From an uncultured Bacilli bacterium (GTDB lineage Bacteria; Bacillota_I; Bacilli_A; RF39; UBA660), in NCBI GenBank assembly GCA_934096075.1, contig CAKOLN010000007.1, forward strand, positions 4,326-68,325: a stretch of DNA of 64,000 bases, read 5' to 3'. The notes beneath the pieces were generated by a model. It ran no database searches and was not told the DNA's origin. It saw nothing but the letters and a program-made list of their open reading frames with translations. Both the position numbers and the translations under genes were made by a program. Numbering within the stretch: position 1 is the stretch's first letter; each line of letters begins with the position of its first letter. Shown piece by piece: positions 39,557 to 46,476 of this stretch.

Positions 39557-39677
39557 ACTAACACTTTCCTATCAAAATAATTATATCATTAGTAAAAGAA
39601 AAAAGATATGAATTTAATCTTTTCATACCCAATATTACACATGTTTAACATTTAACTTATACTTCTACTAGTAATTT

Positions 39678-40466
39678 TTAATTAAACTTTTTAGTTAATA
39701 TATAATCCCTATTTGAATCATCTAATTCTACCACACCATAATCATGAACAGCTTCTATTAGTTGACCATTTACATTACGGTATGTTTCCCAAGCATTTGG
39801 CTCTACCGTAACCTTAACTGATATATCATTATTTATTCTTGCTCCTATAAAACTATTAATTGATTGTGTAGAAAAAATTGATGATTCATTCTTTTTATCG
39901 AATATTAATCCAAAATATGACTGCATATTCATACAACTTTTATATTGATTTACAAACATTCCTAAATCCAAAAATGGTATAGTAATATTTTCTATAGGAA
40001 TATTATCAATTAATCCATTAACATATTTAACAAAGCTTTCATAATAAAAGCTTCTAGATATTTTAAATTCATTCAATAATTTTTTTACTGTAGTTATTTC
40101 ATCATAATTTCTATTTTTATTTATATTTATTAAATGCATTAACCATGACAACTTATCATCTAAATTAGAATCATAAAATTCAATAGTTTTTTCTAAAATC
40201 CTACTAGCTACTAAAAATGATAAATATTCACGACTCATAGCCTGAATCATATAACTATCTTTATTTTTTAAATCAGCATCTATTTTTGGCAATCCAAACG
40301 AATCAAAATATAATGCCACTGGTTCTAATAATTCATATGTAAAAGGATAGTTCTTTTCAAGACACTTTAAAAATTCACTTCTTTCTTGTGTATTATATCC
40401 GTACACAAATAAATGTCTATTTTGATTCATTATTATTTTTTTTAAATATTCCTCATTTTTATACAT
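39678..40466 (-). CDS. hypothetical protein with a degenerate P-loop-like N-terminus
   Basis: The 262-aa ORF has a strong RBS (GGGGAGTGAGG). RHLFVYGYNTQERSEFL sits where a Walker A (GxxGxGK[ST]) would be, but Gly/Lys are replaced. The C-terminal motif is VEPNAWETYRNVNGQLIEAVHDYGVVELD. Confidence 0.4.
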   Translation of the reverse strand: MYKNEEYLKKIIMNQNRHLFVYGYNTQERSEFLKCLEKNYPFTYELLEPVALYFDSFGLPKIDADLKNKDSYMIQAMSREYLSFLVASRILEKTIEFYDSNLDDKLSWLMHLININKNRNYDEITTVKKLLNEFKISRSFYYESFVKYVNGLIDNIPIENITIPFLDLGMFVNQYKSCMNMQSYFGLIFDKKNESSIFSTQSINSFIGARINNDISVKVTVEPNAWETYRNVNGQLIEAVHDYGVVELDDSNRDYILTKKFN

Positions 40467-40701
40467 AAGCTTTACCTCACTCCCCGATTTCTATATCAAA
40501 ATTTCATTATATAATTATAGCACAACTACTCTATGATTTCTATAATATATTTCAAATCTTCTATTGCTTTATCTATATTCATCATACCATTGCCTATAGG
40601 TAAAATATTAAAACAACCAAATAATTTTTTCCCTTCAAAATGGTATTTCTTATTTTTAAAATATAATTTTTTGTTGAATAATTGTAAGTTTTTTTCGTAC
40701 A

Positions 40702-40723
40702 ACTTATCTAATAACTTATCTAA
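40702..40723 (+). repeat. tandem CTTATCTA site, copy 1
   Basis: ACTTATCTA-ATAA-CTTATCTAA, directly downstream of the 128-aa gene stop. Confidence 0.7.
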
Positions 40724-40725
40724 AA

Positions 40726-41112
40726 TTATTTATTTATATACTCATCATAATAATCATAACCTTTTTTAGTTATTTTAAATACTTCTCCTTTATACCCAAC
40801 ATCAGTTATATAATCATTATCTTCAAGTTTTTTTAAGGCATCCTCCCAATATGACATTTCCCTTTCAGTTTGTGATGCTGAACCAACTGAAAATCTAGCA
40901 GAACCACATTGTATTGTACGTCCACTAAGAGTTTTTATATAAATTATTGTAGGATTATGTTCATCTTCTATAGTTTTTTTCAAAAGTTTAGAAGCATATT
41001 CATTAGGAATATATTCTTTTGAGTTAATAAAATTATAAAGATTTACTTGTTTTTCTATTTGATTGACTATATTGTCATCACCTTTAATATTAATTTCATT
41101 TTTCTTATTCAT
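40726..41112 (-). CDS. hypothetical protein, third gene of the coupled operon
   Basis: The 128-aa ORF has RBS AGGAGGG and its ATG overlaps the stop of the 56-aa ORF (ATGAATAA). No family recognised. Confidence 0.5.
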   Translation of the reverse strand: MNKKNEINIKGDDNIVNQIEKQVNLYNFINSKEYIPNEYASKLLKKTIEDEHNPTIIYIKTLSGRTIQCGSARFSVGSASQTEREMSYWEDALKKLEDNDYITDVGYKGEVFKITKKGYDYYDEYINK

Positions 41113-41275
41113 TGTACTTACTTCCCTCCTGAACCACTTTATTATTATTCCCTTTTATTTTAGAAACATTTTTGCTTTTAATATTTGTAAAAGTAATACC
41201 GCCTAAAAATCCTACTATTAAACTAATAAAAATTTCTAGCAGATCTTTCCAATTATGTTGTATGAAATCAATCAT
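41105..41275 (-). CDS. unannotated small membrane protein (56 aa)
   Basis: Own translation: MIDFIQHNWKDLLEIFISLIVGFLGGITFTNIKSKNVSKIKGNNNKVVQEGSKYNE*. RBS AGAGGT lies 6 nt upstream. The ATG overlaps the upstream stop (AATGATTGA) and the stop overlaps the downstream ATG. One TM helix is followed by a basic tail. Confidence 0.6.
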   Translation of the reverse strand: MIDFIQHNWKDLLEIFISLIVGFLGGITFTNIKSKNVSKIKGNNNKVVQEGSKYNE

Positions 41276-41588
41276 TTTTTACCTCTGTATCTAGAAGTTT
41301 ATTTAAATCATTTAAATTATGATATATTTTATTCCATCCTTCATGTGATTCAATATATTGCTTACCTAAGCTTGTAACTAAATCCATTTCATTTTCTATT
41401 TCTATACCACCTAAAATATTAAACAATACTCTTTTAGGATTTATGTAATGCTCATTAACCATATCTCTAAATAAGGATACATAAATATCTTCATCAATAT
41501 TATAATTTTTTGAAGTTGGAATAATATCATTGTAAGATATTTCTTTTAATATGCTAAATTCTATAATTTCTTTTTCGATAGGTTTCAT
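41268..41588 (-). CDS. YjcQ-like winged-helix protein (phage-associated family)
   Basis: The 106-aa protein carries FSILKEIS...NIDEDIY........HYI ... LVTSLGKQYIESHEGWNKIYHNLNDLNKLL, resembling my recollection of the YjcQ (PF09639) pattern. Extended -10 TGGTATAAT and RBS AGGAAGTGA lie upstream. Confidence 0.5.
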   Translation of the reverse strand: MKPIEKEIIEFSILKEISYNDIIPTSKNYNIDEDIYVSLFRDMVNEHYINPKRVLFNILGGIEIENEMDLVTSLGKQYIESHEGWNKIYHNLNDLNKLLDTEVKND

Positions 41589-41651
41589 ATTATCACTTCC
41601 TATTTAATTATACCACATGGACTTCATTTTAAGGTTGATTTTGGACAAAAA

Positions 41652-41673
41652 ACTTATCTAAAACTTATCTTAA
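41652..41673 (+). repeat. tandem CTTATCTA site, copy 2 (upstream of the wHTH operon promoter)
   Basis: ACTTATCTA-AAA-CTTATCTTAA. An extra half-site TTATCTAAAAATTGTAAG lies at 41693..41710. Confidence 0.7.
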
Positions 41674-41714
41674 TGCCTTTTTTGAGGTGAAATTATCTAA
41701 AAATTGTAAGTAGT

Positions 41715-41754
41715 AAAAAGCTCGCAAGCCCTTTATTTATAAGGATTTGCGAAC
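41715..41754 (-). terminator. degenerate copy of the secA terminator
   Basis: Minus strand: GTTCGCAAATCC-ttataaataaa-GGGCTTGCGAGC-TTTTT. It is homologous to the real secA terminator but has 3 stem mismatches. Confidence 0.5.
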
Positions 41755-41900
41755 TTATTTACCACAACACTACTTATACTTGCGTCCACTGCCACATGGC
41801 CTTTTGTATTGGGGATTTTGGTAGCTTTTGGGAGCACTTGGCTAGTTATTTTGGCATTTGGCTGCACCCCAGAGCACTCCGTAGCACTCGGCAAACCTAG
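41755..41900 (-). pseudogene. decayed duplicate of the secA 3' end (C-terminal zinc-finger tail)
   Basis: TTATTTACCACAACA at 41755..41769 is identical to 43984..43998. Translation gives ...KRPCGSGRKYK*CCGK* versus the authentic ...DPCPCGSGRKYKQCCGK*. It has an in-frame TAG, a small deletion/frameshift, and GC content visibly above the surroundings. Confidence 0.75.
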
Positions 41901-41904
41901 TAGA

Positions 41905-41930
41905 ACTTATCTAAAAACTTATCTAAAAAA
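41905..41930 (+). repeat. tandem CTTATCTA site, copy 3
   Basis: ACTTATCTA-AAAA-CTTATCTAAAAAA, between the 572-aa gene stop and the secA remnant. Confidence 0.7.
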
Positions 41931-41985
41931 TAACGAATTTTAATAAATTACAATTTTTAGGCAAGAATAACATTTTGTAATTTAA

Positions 41986-43704
41986 CTACATCCAAAATCT
42001 TATTTCTTCTATTTTATAACCTCTTTTTTCTATTTCCTCAACTATTTGTTTAAAACTTGTGGAATTCATATTTTTAATTCTTCTATATCCACCAAAAGAT
42101 TTTGGTGCTACTTGTGGAATATTTTCCAATAACCAATAATAGACTTCTCTATCATGTGCTTCTTCAATATAAGGGTCAATTATTCGTTTTTGATAGTCTT
42201 CAGCACTTTCTGTTCCTGTTTCAGAAGCAAACTTTTGTAAATTATGCAATTCATCTACTCGTGTACCATGTAATTTATTCAAATTTTTATGTTCTACTTT
42301 TGCATCTTCAAATCTCCCTGCTAAAATCATCATATCAACTAATCTTTCATAGTCATCTCTTGTATATGCGTAAAAAGAATGAGGATACAACTCGTTTACT
42401 TTTTTCAAACACGCTATTGCTAAATCATAGCTTTTATTATTTTTATACTCTGTAGCTTTTCTACTAAGTATTTGTTCTGGCATATATACAACACTTTCGC
42501 CACCATCAGAATATTTTTGAGCTTCAGTTATAAGTATAGACATTATTCCATCTATAGTTGTTAAATCATATTTGCTATTAAACTCATTGATTTTTTTATT
42601 AGTATAACTATCATATCCTGTTTCATAGTTTTTATTATTCTGATTTTCTTTTTTTACTGTATCATCAATTAATTGTTCAGGTTGTACATTATTACTTTGT
42701 TTATTCTTCTTTTTATTCTTAATAATCAATATAATAACTATCGGTGATAAAAAGATACCTGCTGTTATTATGATCGCTAACATATCTATTATAGTAGAAA
42801 CAATAGCAGGATAATCAGTAATAATTATTTCATATATATTTTCATTATCATTTTCATCTAAAACTATTAATTTTATCTTGTCATTTTCTTTCAATGATTC
42901 TAGTTTTGTAATCTCTTTTTCGTTTAAATATATTTTTAGTTTTGCCTTTGCATCACTTAACTCGTATGAATAGTCTAGGGATGTTTCATTCTTTAATTTA
43001 GTTATGGTAGCTTTGTTGTTTTCAAATTCAACTTCACTAGATCCTAATACAAATTTTTTAATTGTAGCTGTTCCCTTGCCTTTAGTTTTATTAATTGTTA
43101 AAGTATAATTCTTTTTGTCTCCATTTTCGGCAGTAACAACTATATTAATTGTATTTTCACCCAGTGATAATTCTTTATTTTCAAATTCAACTTTCGCTTT
43201 TGAATCATTTGCTTCTATCTTAATGTCAACATGTTTTTTTTCTGTTTTAAAATTCATATTATCAGAAACAGTTATTTGTTCATCATCTATAGATACTTCT
43301 TTTATAGAATTATCTTTGCTTTTTTCTATAACAACTTCTTTTTGGCTGTTATTTTGTGTATTATTGTTTGAATAATTATTACCATAATTGCTACTTGTCC
43401 CACCGTTTCCGGAACTGTTCGATGAAGAGTTGCTGCTACCATCCGTTGCTCCAGCAGTCCCCTCATTTTTGTTATAGCCAGAACATGGATCACTATAAAT
43501 TGCTTCTCCATCAGCATAATAATTATTTCCGTTTGTCACCGCCACATGCCAATGAGTTCCGCCATGACCATCACTGTGCATTCCATATGTAACACCATTT
43601 GGACATGTTTTTATAGAACTTTTTCTTAAACCACCACCTGTTGCATTTACTGTAAGTGGTAAAAGTACTAACATACAAATTCCTAATGTTAAAATCCTTT
43701 TCAT
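41986..43704 (-). CDS. bitopic surface protein: signal peptide, His-rich (GGTHWH) module, Asn/Ser/Gly linker, cadherin-like beta-sandwich repeats, TM helix, helical cytoplasmic domain
   Basis: ATG 43704 (MKRILTLGICMLVLLPLTVNA) follows RBS AAGAGGTG. Motifs include MHSDGHGGTHWHV and the cadherin-like signature GENTINIVVTAENGDKKNYTLTINKT. The TM is IIDMLAIIITAGIFLSPIVIILII, followed by a C-terminal region of about 230 aa of unknown family. Confidence 0.7.
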   Translation of the reverse strand: MKRILTLGICMLVLLPLTVNATGGGLRKSSIKTCPNGVTYGMHSDGHGGTHWHVAVTNGNNYYADGEAIYSDPCSGYNKNEGTAGATDGSSNSSSNSSGNGGTSSNYGNNYSNNNTQNNSQKEVVIEKSKDNSIKEVSIDDEQITVSDNMNFKTEKKHVDIKIEANDSKAKVEFENKELSLGENTINIVVTAENGDKKNYTLTINKTKGKGTATIKKFVLGSSEVEFENNKATITKLKNETSLDYSYELSDAKAKLKIYLNEKEITKLESLKENDKIKLIVLDENDNENIYEIIITDYPAIVSTIIDMLAIIITAGIFLSPIVIILIIKNKKKNKQSNNVQPEQLIDDTVKKENQNNKNYETGYDSYTNKKINEFNSKYDLTTIDGIMSILITEAQKYSDGGESVVYMPEQILSRKATEYKNNKSYDLAIACLKKVNELYPHSFYAYTRDDYERLVDMMILAGRFEDAKVEHKNLNKLHGTRVDELHNLQKFASETGTESAEDYQKRIIDPYIEEAHDREVYYWLLENIPQVAPKSFGGYRRIKNMNSTSFKQIVEEIEKRGYKIEEIRFWM

Positions 43705-43783
43705 TCTTACACCTCTTATAATAATTATAACATAAATTATTGGTATAATTTTGATATTACAACTTTTAAATAACAAATTACAA

Positions 43784-43808
43784 TTTAGATAATTTTTAGA
43801 TAAGTTTT
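43784..43808 (-). repeat. tandem CTTATCTA site, copy 4 (inverted relative to the others; upstream of the 572-aa gene)
   Basis: The plus strand reads TTTAGATAATTTTTAGATAAGTTTT, which is the reverse complement of AAAACTTATCTA-AAAA-TTATCTAAA. Confidence 0.7.
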
Positions 43809-43881
43809 GTATTTAATTTGAGAACATTCTTATAATATGCGTTTTGCCCTTATTTTATAAGGGCTTGCAAGGATTTTACTG

Positions 43882-43902
43882 CTTATCTAAAACTTATCTA
43901 AG
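43882..43902 (+). repeat. tandem CTTATCTA site, copy 5 (just downstream of the secA terminator)
   Basis: CTTATCTA-AAA-CTTATCTAAG occupies the same relative position to the authentic secA end as copy 2 does to the remnant. Confidence 0.7.
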
Positions 43903-43944
43903 ACAAAAGACATGCCTAAAATTACCTAAATATTGTAATCATAG

Positions 43945-43983
43945 AAAAACCCGCAATCCCTTATTTTATACGGGTTCGCGGGC
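43945..43983 (-). terminator. rho-independent terminator of secA
   Basis: Minus strand: GCCCGCGAACCC-gtataaaataa-GGGATTGCGGG-TTTTTC, immediately after the TAA. Confidence 0.85.
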
Positions 43984-46476
43984 TTATTTACCACAACATT
44001 GTTTATATTTACGTCCTGAGCCACAAGGACAAGGATCATTTCTACCAACAGTTTGGTTCTTTTTAACAGGTTTTGATTTAACCTTTTCTTTACTATCATT
44101 AGTTCTAATATTTTTATTCTCAACTCTTTCTAAGTTTTGTCTAACTTCTGCTTTAAGTAAATAAGTAGTTATTTCTTTATTAGTCTCTTTTAACATATTG
44201 TCAAAAAGTTCAAAACCTTCTAGTGCATAAGCCTGTAATGGATTAGTTTGAGCATATCCTCTTAATCCAATTCCTTCTTTTAAATGTTCCATATTATCTA
44301 GCTGATTCATCCAATTCTTATCTAATACTTTTAACGTAATAGCTTTTTCAAAATCATCTTGTATATCTAAAGGAACTTCACTTAGCTTAGAATTATAATC
44401 ATTAACAACTATATCATAAATATAATCTTGCATTTCAGGAATACTCTTACTTTCTAATTCTTTCTCATCTAATTTTTTAGATTTAAGTAAATTAGCATTA
44501 AAGTACTCACATATATTAACTACATCATTATGTGTAATTGTATCCTCAGGTGGAAAATGATTATTAATTTGATCAATAACAAATTCTTTAAATATAGTTA
44601 AAATTCTATCTTTTATATTATCTTTATCTAATATTTCATTTCTTCTTTCATAAACAATTTCTCTCTGTTTACTAATTACATTATCATAATCAAGTAATGC
44701 TTTTCTTCTATCATAGTTAAATCCTTCAACTCTCTTTTGACTAGATTCAATATTTTTACTCATCATTCTATGATTTATAGGTGTATTTTCATCAAAACCA
44801 AGACTACCCATTAAAGATTTTATTTTTTCACTACCAAACTTAATCATTAAGTCATCTTCCATAGAAACATAGAATCTTGTTCTACCTGGGTCTCCTTGTC
44901 TACCACTTCTACCTCTTAATTGATTATCAATACGTCTACTTTCATGTCTCTCAGTACCTATTACTAAAAGACCACCTAATTCCTTAACACCTTCACCCAA
45001 TTTAATATCTGTACCACGTCCAGCCATATTAGTTGCAATAGTAACAGCATCTTTTTGACCAGCTTTTTCTATTATATGAGCTTCTCTTTCATGATTCTTT
45101 GCATTTAATAGTTCATGTGGTATTCTTTTTTTATTTAATAAACCACTTAAATATTCACTACTTTCAATTGATGCAGTACCAACTAATATAGGTTGATGAG
45201 TCTTATGTATTTCTTCTATATAATTAGCAATAGCATTATATTTACCTCTTTTATTCATAAATACATAATCTTCTTCATCTATTCTAATAACAGGTTTATT
45301 TGTAGGAATTACAATAACATACATATTATAAATATTTCTAAATTCTTCCTCTTCAGTTTTAGCAGTACCTGTCATACCTGATAACTTATTATACATTCTA
45401 AATAAATTTTGAAAAGTAATCGTAGCCAAAACTTTAGTTTCTTCATTAATATGTACCCCTTCTTTTGCTTCTAAAGCTTGATGAAGTCCATCACTATATT
45501 GTCTTCCATGCATAAGTCTACCAGTAAATGCATCTACAATTATAATTTTATCACTATCAACTACATAATCCACATCTTTTTTAAATCCATAATTAGCAAC
45601 TAAAGCCTTATCTAAATTATGCACTATGGCAGCATTCTTAATATCATATAAATTATCAACATTCAATAATCTTTCTGCTTTTACAATACCTTCTTCAGTT
45701 AAAGTAACGCTTCTAGTTTTTTCATCTAACACATAATCATCAGTAGTTAAACTCTTAGCCGTTCTATCCGCTAATTTATATAAATCAGCACTTTTACTTA
45801 CACCACCACTTATAATTAACGGAGTTCTTGCTTCATCTATTAATATTGAGTCAACTTCATCTATAATTGCAAAATTTAAAGGTCTTTGTACTCTATTTTT
45901 CCTTCTAACAACCATGTTATCTCTTAAATAGTCAAACCCTAATTCATTATTAGTTGTATATGTAATATCTTTACTATATGCTTCTCTCTTTTGTTCTGGA
46001 GTAGCATCTTTCAAATTAACTCCTACACTAACATCAAGATAATTATAAATCTTACCCATCCATTCAGCATCACGTACACTTAAATATTCATTTACTGTAA
46101 CAACATGAACACCTTTTCCAGATAACGCATTTAAATATGCAGGCATAGTACTTGTTAAAGTTTTACCTTCACCTGTTTTCATCTCAGCTATATTACCATA
46201 ATGTATACATATACCACCAATAACTTGAACTTTATAAGGTTTTTCTCCTATCATTCTATATGCAGCCTCTCTAACAACCGCAAAAGCAGGCACTAATATA
46301 TCATCCAATGTTTCTCCATCTTTTAATCTAGTCTTAAATTCTTGAGTTTTAGCTTTCAATTCTAAATCTGTTAGTTTACTCATTTCTTCATCTAAAGCCA
46401 TAACTTCATCAGCTAACTTATCAAATCTTTGTAATTCTTTATATTCTCTGTCAAATAATTTTGTAAATATATTCAT
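43984..46476 (-). CDS. secA: preprotein translocase ATPase SecA
   Basis: Walker A MKTGEGKT, DEAD-like IIDEVDSILIDEARTPLIISG, TNMAGRGTDI, and C-terminal zinc finger CPCGSGRKYKQCCGK. Confidence 0.97.
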   Translation of the reverse strand: MNIFTKLFDREYKELQRFDKLADEVMALDEEMSKLTDLELKAKTQEFKTRLKDGETLDDILVPAFAVVREAAYRMIGEKPYKVQVIGGICIHYGNIAEMKTGEGKTLTSTMPAYLNALSGKGVHVVTVNEYLSVRDAEWMGKIYNYLDVSVGVNLKDATPEQKREAYSKDITYTTNNELGFDYLRDNMVVRRKNRVQRPLNFAIIDEVDSILIDEARTPLIISGGVSKSADLYKLADRTAKSLTTDDYVLDEKTRSVTLTEEGIVKAERLLNVDNLYDIKNAAIVHNLDKALVANYGFKKDVDYVVDSDKIIIVDAFTGRLMHGRQYSDGLHQALEAKEGVHINEETKVLATITFQNLFRMYNKLSGMTGTAKTEEEEFRNIYNMYVIVIPTNKPVIRIDEEDYVFMNKRGKYNAIANYIEEIHKTHQPILVGTASIESSEYLSGLLNKKRIPHELLNAKNHEREAHIIEKAGQKDAVTIATNMAGRGTDIKLGEGVKELGGLLVIGTERHESRRIDNQLRGRSGRQGDPGRTRFYVSMEDDLMIKFGSEKIKSLMGSLGFDENTPINHRMMSKNIESSQKRVEGFNYDRRKALLDYDNVISKQREIVYERRNEILDKDNIKDRILTIFKEFVIDQINNHFPPEDTITHNDVVNICEYFNANLLKSKKLDEKELESKSIPEMQDYIYDIVVNDYNSKLSEVPLDIQDDFEKAITLKVLDKNWMNQLDNMEHLKEGIGLRGYAQTNPLQAYALEGFELFDNMLKETNKEITTYLLKAEVRQNLERVENKNIRTNDSKEKVKSKPVKKNQTVGRNDPCPCGSGRKYKQCCGK

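Follow-up and report, generated by a model that had tools for sequence, protein, structure and literature searches.

Two predicted genes, for proteins of 106 and 128 residues, are separated by 155 nucleotides (nt; 41113-41267) in a 64,000-nt stretch of an uncultured Bacilli bacterium (GenBank assembly GCA_934096075.1, contig CAKOLN010000007.1, positions 4,326 to 68,325; this whole stretch is called the window below). The space is filled by a 56-codon open reading frame (ORF). Is this small frame a gene, and what would an operon of this composition do? Comparison of homologous loci indicates that the small ORF is a genuine gene, kept by purifying selection and obligately paired with the 128-residue gene. 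The operon probably represents a mobile defence (or toxin-type) module, small and so far undescribed; this is proposed because the folded domain of the 128-residue protein is also the C-terminal part of many anti-phage enzymes. Our preferred reading, which we hold tentatively and at a little less than even confidence, is that the 56- and 128-residue genes are the obligate core of a mobile abortive-infection-type anti-phage module, consisting of a sensor and a membrane effector. An earlier interpretation made from the letters of the window (the sequence-only reading) had likened the operon to toxin, abortive-infection or exclusion systems, and both the genomic company of the operon and the domain sharing of the 128-residue protein fit such a conflict module.

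Operon structure

The three genes are encoded on the minus strand (Table 1) of a window with a G+C content of about 24%. At the junction of the first and second genes (ATGATTGA), the ATG of the small ORF lies within the upstream TGA stop, and at the junction of the second and third genes (ATGAATAA), the ATG of the 128-residue gene lies within the TAA of the small ORF; each overlap is 8 nt. A Shine-Dalgarno-like GAGGT is located 5 nt ahead of the small-ORF ATG, and the 128-residue start is preceded by AGGAGG/GGAAG. The two-sided interlock of starts and stops, the 155-nt gap and the separate ribosome-binding site described by the sequence-only reading can all be seen in the sequence. TGA is taken as a true stop because in relatives the first protein ends at the same residue but with a TAA codon. 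The block that holds the probable operon promoter and the ribosome-binding site of the first gene (41594..41615) is identical base for base in three homologous loci (L021, L023 and L008; alignment A5). A consensus promoter scan missed the extended -10 element because a -35 hexamer is absent. With their stops and starts interlocked and a conserved extended -10 promoter ahead of them, the three genes constitute a single unit.

Conservation of the small gene

Homologous loci were collected from diverged relatives of the 128-residue protein, from matches to the 106-residue protein and from a single match to a GTDB species genome, and those examined are numbered L001-L024 and L026-L033. Relatives of the 128-residue protein in public metagenome proteins number 38, at 99-54% identity, and none of them is named or has a Pfam domain. 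Among GTDB species representatives there is one locus only, in a metagenome-assembled genome (MAG) of an uncultured Erysipelotrichaceae bacterium. In all homologous loci examined the small frame is open, has 56-59 codons and can be aligned, and in every one of them it stands ahead of the 128-residue-type gene (the big gene), overlaps it by 8, 11 or 17 nt and has a Shine-Dalgarno sequence. Across lineages these overlaps are always 2 modulo 3, which may be chance (about 1 in 8).

Comparison of synonymous and nonsynonymous changes had been proposed as a check on the reality of the small gene. For most pairs, the ratio of nonsynonymous to synonymous substitution rates (dN/dS, pairwise Nei-Gojobori) is 0.10-0.30, with dS of about 0.8-3, to saturation, and the ratio is the same as or below that of both flanking genes. 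The small ORF is kept in relatives down to about 45% identity, and residues W9, I15, L19, G22, G25, G26, K35, G42, N45, Q49 and G51 are invariant among them. A reverse search with the small-ORF alignment alone found nine metagenome loci, and the big gene overlaps downstream in all eight of those with enough DNA. The small ORF is therefore regarded, on comparative grounds, as real and as an obligate partner, since it is conserved, has low dN/dS and is followed by the big gene in 8/8 loci; the claim of the sequence-only reading that it is a real gene is borne out, while the stoichiometric co-expression that this reading also proposed is an inference. Its description as unannotated holds for the ORF track that was used for that reading and not for public records, because a gene of 56-59 residues, with no name and no Pfam domain, is already present there in gene calls of public metagenomes and in one NCBI MAG record.

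The frame could also be a chance, untranslated ORF in AT-rich spacer DNA, as its small size might suggest. Conservation to about 45% identity, dN/dS of 0.1-0.3 at saturated dS, the invariant residues and the conserved Shine-Dalgarno sequence and start/stop coupling all argue against this, and we give it almost no weight; conservation, selection and the reciprocal search effectively refute it.

The 128-residue protein and its domain family

The 128-residue protein consists of a disordered N-terminal motif and a domain that elsewhere is found C-terminal to TIR, DUF4062 and kinase domains. In the AlphaFold2 (AF2) model, residues 1-31 are disordered (predicted local distance difference test, pLDDT, ~42) and residues 37-126 are confidently predicted (pLDDT ~90), forming a domain of ~90 residues in the order helix, three-strand, helix, wing, helix. 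Foldseek comparison of the model with PDB and BFVD gave nothing better than E of about 0.1 and only generic winged-helix folds (RTP, RbkR, MarR, eS10 and MukE, E>0.1). A PDB sequence-profile search with the family returned only chance matches to CD81 and no related sequence, and a PADLOC scan of the protein gave only a chance-level match (Specificity_II, E=0.015).

Scans of all three proteins against Pfam, PHROGs, PADLOC and NCBIfam yielded only one match, a sub-threshold match to YjcQ (see below). This agrees with the earlier remark that the operon matched no system the reader could name, and these scans place the 128-residue protein in no known unrelated housekeeping family.

The big-family profile was searched against 1.84 billion representative proteins, giving 474 matches at E<=1e-3 and 35 at E<=1e-10, with E-values reaching 1e-10 to 1e-20. 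In most of the 474, only the ~90-residue domain aligns, at the C-terminus of a longer protein. Scanning 116 of these relatives for other domains identified the Pfam families TIR_2 (26), DUF4062 (18), Pkinase (4), TIR (3) and CAP12/Pycsar-type TIR (3), with single cases of SEFIR, CHAT and Schlafen AlbA_2 (SLFN). The PADLOC families among them were PDC-S60 (26), spbK (19) and ThsB (13), and further PDC-S66, mad6, the Stk2 and PD-T4-6 kinases and TIR-TM. The C-terminal domain alignments are clean at the residue level, with the consensus LSxEAxxLLxxA...IQ...RExAxWExALxEL...GxKGExFxVTxxGY, and the spbK and PDC-S60 models cover only the N-terminal enzyme part of these proteins. A link between the 128-residue domain and SpbK was rejected, as only the TIR portion of these proteins is matched by the spbK model. 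One DUF4062 member (P0150) has relatives on plasmid pANL of Synechococcus elongatus that are annotated as "DUF4062 domain-containing protein". The module appears from sequence searches to match no described system, yet its building block belongs to a domain family found within known defence proteins.

Three family members (P0046, P0062 and P0081) have two tandem copies of the winged-helix-like domain, which in P0062 and P0081 follow an N-terminal domain. Tandem copies would fit a domain that works by side-by-side packing.

The micro-protein and a motif shared across the gene boundary

The 56-residue protein begins with an acidic stretch, continues into one hydrophobic helix (residues ~12-29) and ends in a basic tail rich in Asn, in agreement with the single hydrophobic helix and basic tail described for it before. 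Its hydrophobic run (LLEIFISLIVGFLGGITF, about 18 residues) holds a near-invariant Glu and a GxxGG motif, and W9, E14, G22, G25 and G26 are invariant or near-invariant. The Kyte-Doolittle maximum over 19 residues is 2.05 in the window and 1.3-2.1 in relatives. By the positive-inside rule, the basic tail would be placed in the cytoplasm. A holin had been offered as one option for this protein; this option finds no support, as no endolysin or lysis gene adjoins the micro-protein in the window or in any locus examined, and its partner is always the 128-residue protein.

An 18-residue motif, KNxSKIKGNxNxVxQ, is common to the tail of the small protein and the N-terminus of the 128-residue protein. 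The tail copy covers residues 32-49 (IKSKNVSKIKGNNNKVVQ, with the motif given as KSKNVSKIKGNNNKVVQ) and the N-terminal copy covers residues 1-18 (MNKKNEINIKGDDNIVNQ, with the motif given as NKKNEINIKGDDNIVNQ). The small-ORF profile matches the N-termini of the big family at E of about 1e-3 to 1e-4, including the distant members P0040-P0042. In effect, a tandem repeat of ~24 residues spans the boundary between the small and big genes, and all relatives retain it.

The first gene, gene order and neighbourhoods

The 106-residue protein matches the Pfam family YjcQ (PF09639) at E=0.005 and 17.4 bits, below the gathering cut-off of 23.3. The top PDB match of its family profile (A3) is the nuclear magnetic resonance structure of YjcQ, 2HGC (residues 5-98 against 2-92, E=0.048). 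Its AF2 model (pLDDT 90.8) also has 2HGC as the top Foldseek match (probability 0.99, TMt 0.68), and GntR-, MarR- and DtxR-type regulators come next. These three weak but concordant lines, from sequence and from modelled structure, identify it as a YjcQ-like winged helix, so that the winged helix proposed earlier can be given a type. YjcQ itself is a Bacillus subtilis protein of unknown function; the likeness consists of a full-length alignment and the best structural match, whereas the score lies under the Pfam threshold and YjcQ has no known link to a micro-protein partner. The gene has dN/dS of 0.15-0.30 and is probably regulatory.

The small and big genes form an invariant pair in all loci, and the first position varies. 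The YjcQ-like gene is first in the window and in L005-7, L010, L013-14, L018-23, L026-27 and L029-32. An APH-like kinase gene (PF01636, 1e-22) stands ahead of it in L008-9 and L024, and in L004 a Fic gene (PADLOC candidate PDC-S72, 2e-54) takes its place and overlaps the start of the small ORF. There is no first gene in L001-3, L015-17, L028 and L033, where the big protein has an extra C-terminal extension of ~90 residues, nor in L011-12, where the big protein has 136 residues without the extension. The 106-residue protein is an accessory, and its gene is the variable first gene of the module. A proposal that the C-terminal extension of the 220-residue fusion variants replaces the 106-residue gene was rejected (hhalign probability 0.8%, and L018 carries both). 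The APH-like or protein-kinase-like gene (309-320 residues; L008 4590-5519 and L024 3027-3989) lies between the conserved promoter downstream of secA and the trio, forming a four-gene operon, and has weak PADLOC matches to the mad6 and PD-T4-6 kinases. The Fic protein of L004 (2883-3950) has 178 residues and the variant motif HPFMEGNTR, and it is encoded between AbiEii and a type III restriction-modification system.

Neighbouring genes across the loci encode MutH with a Dcm methylase, an OLD-family AAA_15/TOPRIM nuclease, AbiEii, type III restriction-modification, NUDIX, Fic and ADP-ribosylglycohydrolase. In L015-L020, the pair or trio is carried on what looks like a compact integrative element of ~9 kb, which splits an NMT1-family gene. 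Besides an XRE repressor, this element encodes up to three serine recombinases and a zinc-ribbon or PH_gly_zipper protein.

Cassette array at the secA 3' end

The trio directly follows secA in L021-L023. In the window, the stretch 41580-41960 is colinear with the region from the secA end to the trio of L021 and L023 (alignment A5) and contains, in order, a displaced secA tail, a hairpin terminator, a tandem repeat, the extended -10 element and a ribosome-binding site. The displaced tail marks, as far as the alignment indicates, the former junction between secA and the trio, and because of this colinearity a 596-residue gene (41986-43776) would have entered later between them. The true secA tail is at 43984-44030 and the first remnant at about 41755-41812; the second, decayed remnant lies downstream of the operon (Table 1). 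At the position colinear with the decayed remnant, L024 and L008 read LLGCFNFLPCGSGKKYKQCCGK*, a tail ending ...LPCGSGKKYKQCCGK*, and the decayed tail is, on this comparison, the other edge of the cassette.

Table 1. Positions of the operon genes, their signals and the flanking repeats and secA remnants in the window.
Feature	Position	Strand	Basis
Gene 1, 106-residue YjcQ-like winged-helix ORF	41268..41588	minus	ORF list
Gene 2, 56-residue micro-protein ORF	41105..41275	minus	ORF list
Gene 3, 128-residue protein ORF	40726..41112	minus	ORF list
Ribosome-binding site AGGAAGTG ahead of the 106-residue start	41594-41601	minus	read from sequence
Probable operon promoter, extended -10 TGGTATAAT	41607-41615	minus	read from sequence
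Tandem TTAGATAAG-type repeat, 11-bp period, about 30-60 nt upstream of the -10	41645..41675	minus	
Displaced copy of the secA 3' end, RPCGSGRKYK*CCGK*, and hairpin terminator	41715..41812	minus	alignment A5, translation
Second tandem TTAGATAAG repeat, 12-bp period, right after the operon stop codon	40697..40725	minus	
Decayed second secA-type C-terminal tail, downstream of the operon, reading LFGCFNILPIGNGMMNIDK	about 40560..40634	minus	

Of the ten exact TTAGATAAG copies in the window, nine fall within 40703-44325, while the expectation for the whole window is 2.35. Homology to the window ends inside the second repeat in L021 (6866-6885) and L023 (3653-3672), where a prophage with a tyrosine integrase, an S24 repressor, XRE, SSB and NinB starts (A7). 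Since homology stops inside the repeat where the prophage begins, this repeat acts like an attachment site and leaves the trio outside the prophage. The second repeat is thus probably a phage attachment site rather than, or as well as, a regulator site. For L023, a prophage-moron reading was rejected because similarity to the window breaks off at the repeat that follows the operon.

Window positions 39600-44030 and the loci L008 and L021-L024 look like an array of cassettes, each bounded by a secA 3'-end copy, a hairpin terminator and tandem TTAGATAAG repeats. This arrangement fits serial site-specific insertion at the secA 3' end, and the trio would thus be one cassette in an insertion-hotspot array built there step by step. 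Whatever the function, the locus illustrates how AT-rich gut bacteria of the Erysipelotrichaceae-like type accumulate cassettes at the 3' end of secA.

Proposed mode of action and related systems

Support for a sensor paired with a membrane effector comes from the invariant gene pair, purifying selection on all three genes, the shared motif, the domain sharing and the defence-type neighbourhoods. In such a module, the micro-protein would insert with its N-terminus out and C-terminus in, leaving the basic tail in the cytoplasm. The tail motif would pair with the identical motif at the N-terminus of the 128-residue protein and so tether the sensor to the membrane helix. Sensor domains would bind a multimeric phage structure or nucleic acid and pack side by side, and this packing would gather the helices, with their Gly and Glu residues, into a pore or lesion, depolarising the cell before the phage cycle is completed. 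The YjcQ-like protein would regulate, and in some relatives a Fic protein or APH-like kinase in the first position may add to or replace the effector. A bolder version, which we consider somewhat unlikely, is that the module represents a new anti-phage class, in which a stand-alone sensor domain is coupled non-covalently by the duplicated 18-residue motif to a 56-residue pore-forming micro-protein, and clustering on a phage assembly leads to depolarisation without an enzyme.

Several observations weigh against the sensor-effector reading. The hydrophobic stretch is short (17-18 residues) and contains a conserved Glu (E14), so it could be an amphipathic or docking helix instead of a membrane span. 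The winged-helix-like domain might be no more than a DNA-binding domain. None of the three window proteins matches a PADLOC model, and no copy of the module was found in IMG/VR, in the cultured phages of INPHARED (50,697 phage genomes) or in PLSDB plasmids. Three single-chain relatives (P0045, P0048 and P0051) were considered as fusions of the small ORF to the domain; their N-terminal helices do not match the small-ORF profile significantly (E=0.27 or worse) and give a hint only. The domain is found at the C-terminus of 18 DUF4062 proteins, and KpSwz, discussed below, is not among the best 150 matches listed.

A known parallel in layout is the RexA/RexB system of phage lambda, in which a cytoplasmic sensor and a membrane protein that depolarises the cell on activation are encoded on a mobile element. 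Both would be two-component abortive-infection systems of sensor and membrane protein. RexB, however, is a four-helix channel, RexA is unrelated in sequence, and no PADLOC model matched the three proteins.

DUF4062 is a TIR-like NADase (2026 preprints 10.64898/2026.05.01.722283 and 10.64898/2026.06.25.731849). In Swarozyc, a C-terminal HTH/winged auxiliary domain binds the phage portal, and 13 copies pack side by side and activate the enzyme (bioRxiv 10.64898/2026.05.01.722283). Evangelion needs an unannotated C-terminal auxiliary region that was read as a sensor (10.64898/2026.06.25.731849). Five DUF4062 proteins of about 270-285 residues (P0129, P0135, P0148, P0150 and P0159) carry the 128-residue-type domain C-terminally, at the position of the sensor domain of the Swarozyc protein KpSwz, accession WP_202404386. 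The window operon differs in having no NADase or other enzyme domain (no DUF4062 or TIR domain was matched in the three proteins by Pfam or PADLOC); here the domain is preceded by nothing more than a short motif and has a putative membrane micro-protein as its partner. A Salmonella plasmid homologue of KpSwz is interrupted by an IS3 element.

SpbK, the TIR NADase of ICEBs1, is activated by clustering on the SPbeta portal (PMC12847820), YonE. Among the domain relatives, 19 carry an SpbK-type TIR, and the proposed logic is the same, with a small docking domain clustering on a multimeric phage structure. The SpbK docking domain differs in being N-terminal and without sequence relation to the 128-residue domain (no PDB match), and the effector here would be a membrane helix, not a TIR domain.

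Should the module turn out to protect against phages, its core pair of 184 residues would rank with the smallest known sensor-effector systems. A micro-protein below the usual annotation cut-offs could then be an obligate partner of an immune sensor, and a ~90-residue domain that recurs C-terminally in hundreds of TIR, DUF4062 and kinase defence proteins would gain a name and a testable role. The motif duplicated across the gene boundary suggests a simple, portable way to tether a soluble sensor to a membrane effector.

Alternative explanations

Small hydrophobic proteins with Gly-rich packing motifs and tightly coupled partner genes also suggest a membrane toxin-antitoxin (addiction) pair. 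The 56-residue helix would be the toxin, the 128-residue protein would neutralise it through the shared motif and repress the operon through its winged-helix-like domain, the YjcQ-like protein would be a co-regulator, and the pair would stabilise mobile elements. The presence of the module on recombinase elements and beside AbiEii and Fic genes is consistent with this, as are DNA-binding folds, which are typical of type II antitoxins. We nevertheless consider it unlikely, because the known small membrane toxins Hok, Fst and TisB are under antisense-RNA control and not that of a translationally coupled protein, the domain family of the 128-residue protein is otherwise joined to immune effectors (TIR, DUF4062, kinase) and not to antitoxins, and no toxin-antitoxin family was matched in Pfam or NCBIfam.

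Two winged-helix-type folds could also belong to a membrane-tethered regulator of transcription or recombination, in which one or both proteins bind DNA, for example at the TTAGATAAG repeats, and the micro-protein anchors or sequesters the 128-residue protein in the manner of an anti-sigma factor. Tandem repeats do lie 30-60 nt upstream of the operon -10 and beside neighbouring islet genes, but no TTAGATAAG copy occurs in L001-L009 and L011-L020, where the gene pair is present, and the repeats in L021 and L023 behave as a prophage attachment site. The usual partners of the domain, moreover, are immunity enzymes and not regulators, and this explanation seems distinctly unlikely. Temperate phages encode small membrane exclusion proteins such as Sie2009, SieB and Imm, and the micro-protein with its cytoplasmic partner might block entry of incoming phage DNA without killing the cell. 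The membrane component, the integration hotspot and the integrase prophage directly adjoining in L021-L023 would suit superinfection exclusion of this kind; it is very improbable all the same, since the homology break in A7 puts the operon outside the L023 prophage, no copy was found in the searched phage genomes or in IMG/VR, and the bulk of the system is cytoplasmic and sensor-like.

Following the trio in the window (39678-40466) is an orphan gene for 262 residues, without a match in Pfam or PADLOC; a 265-residue counterpart occupies the same position in L010 (1204-2001).

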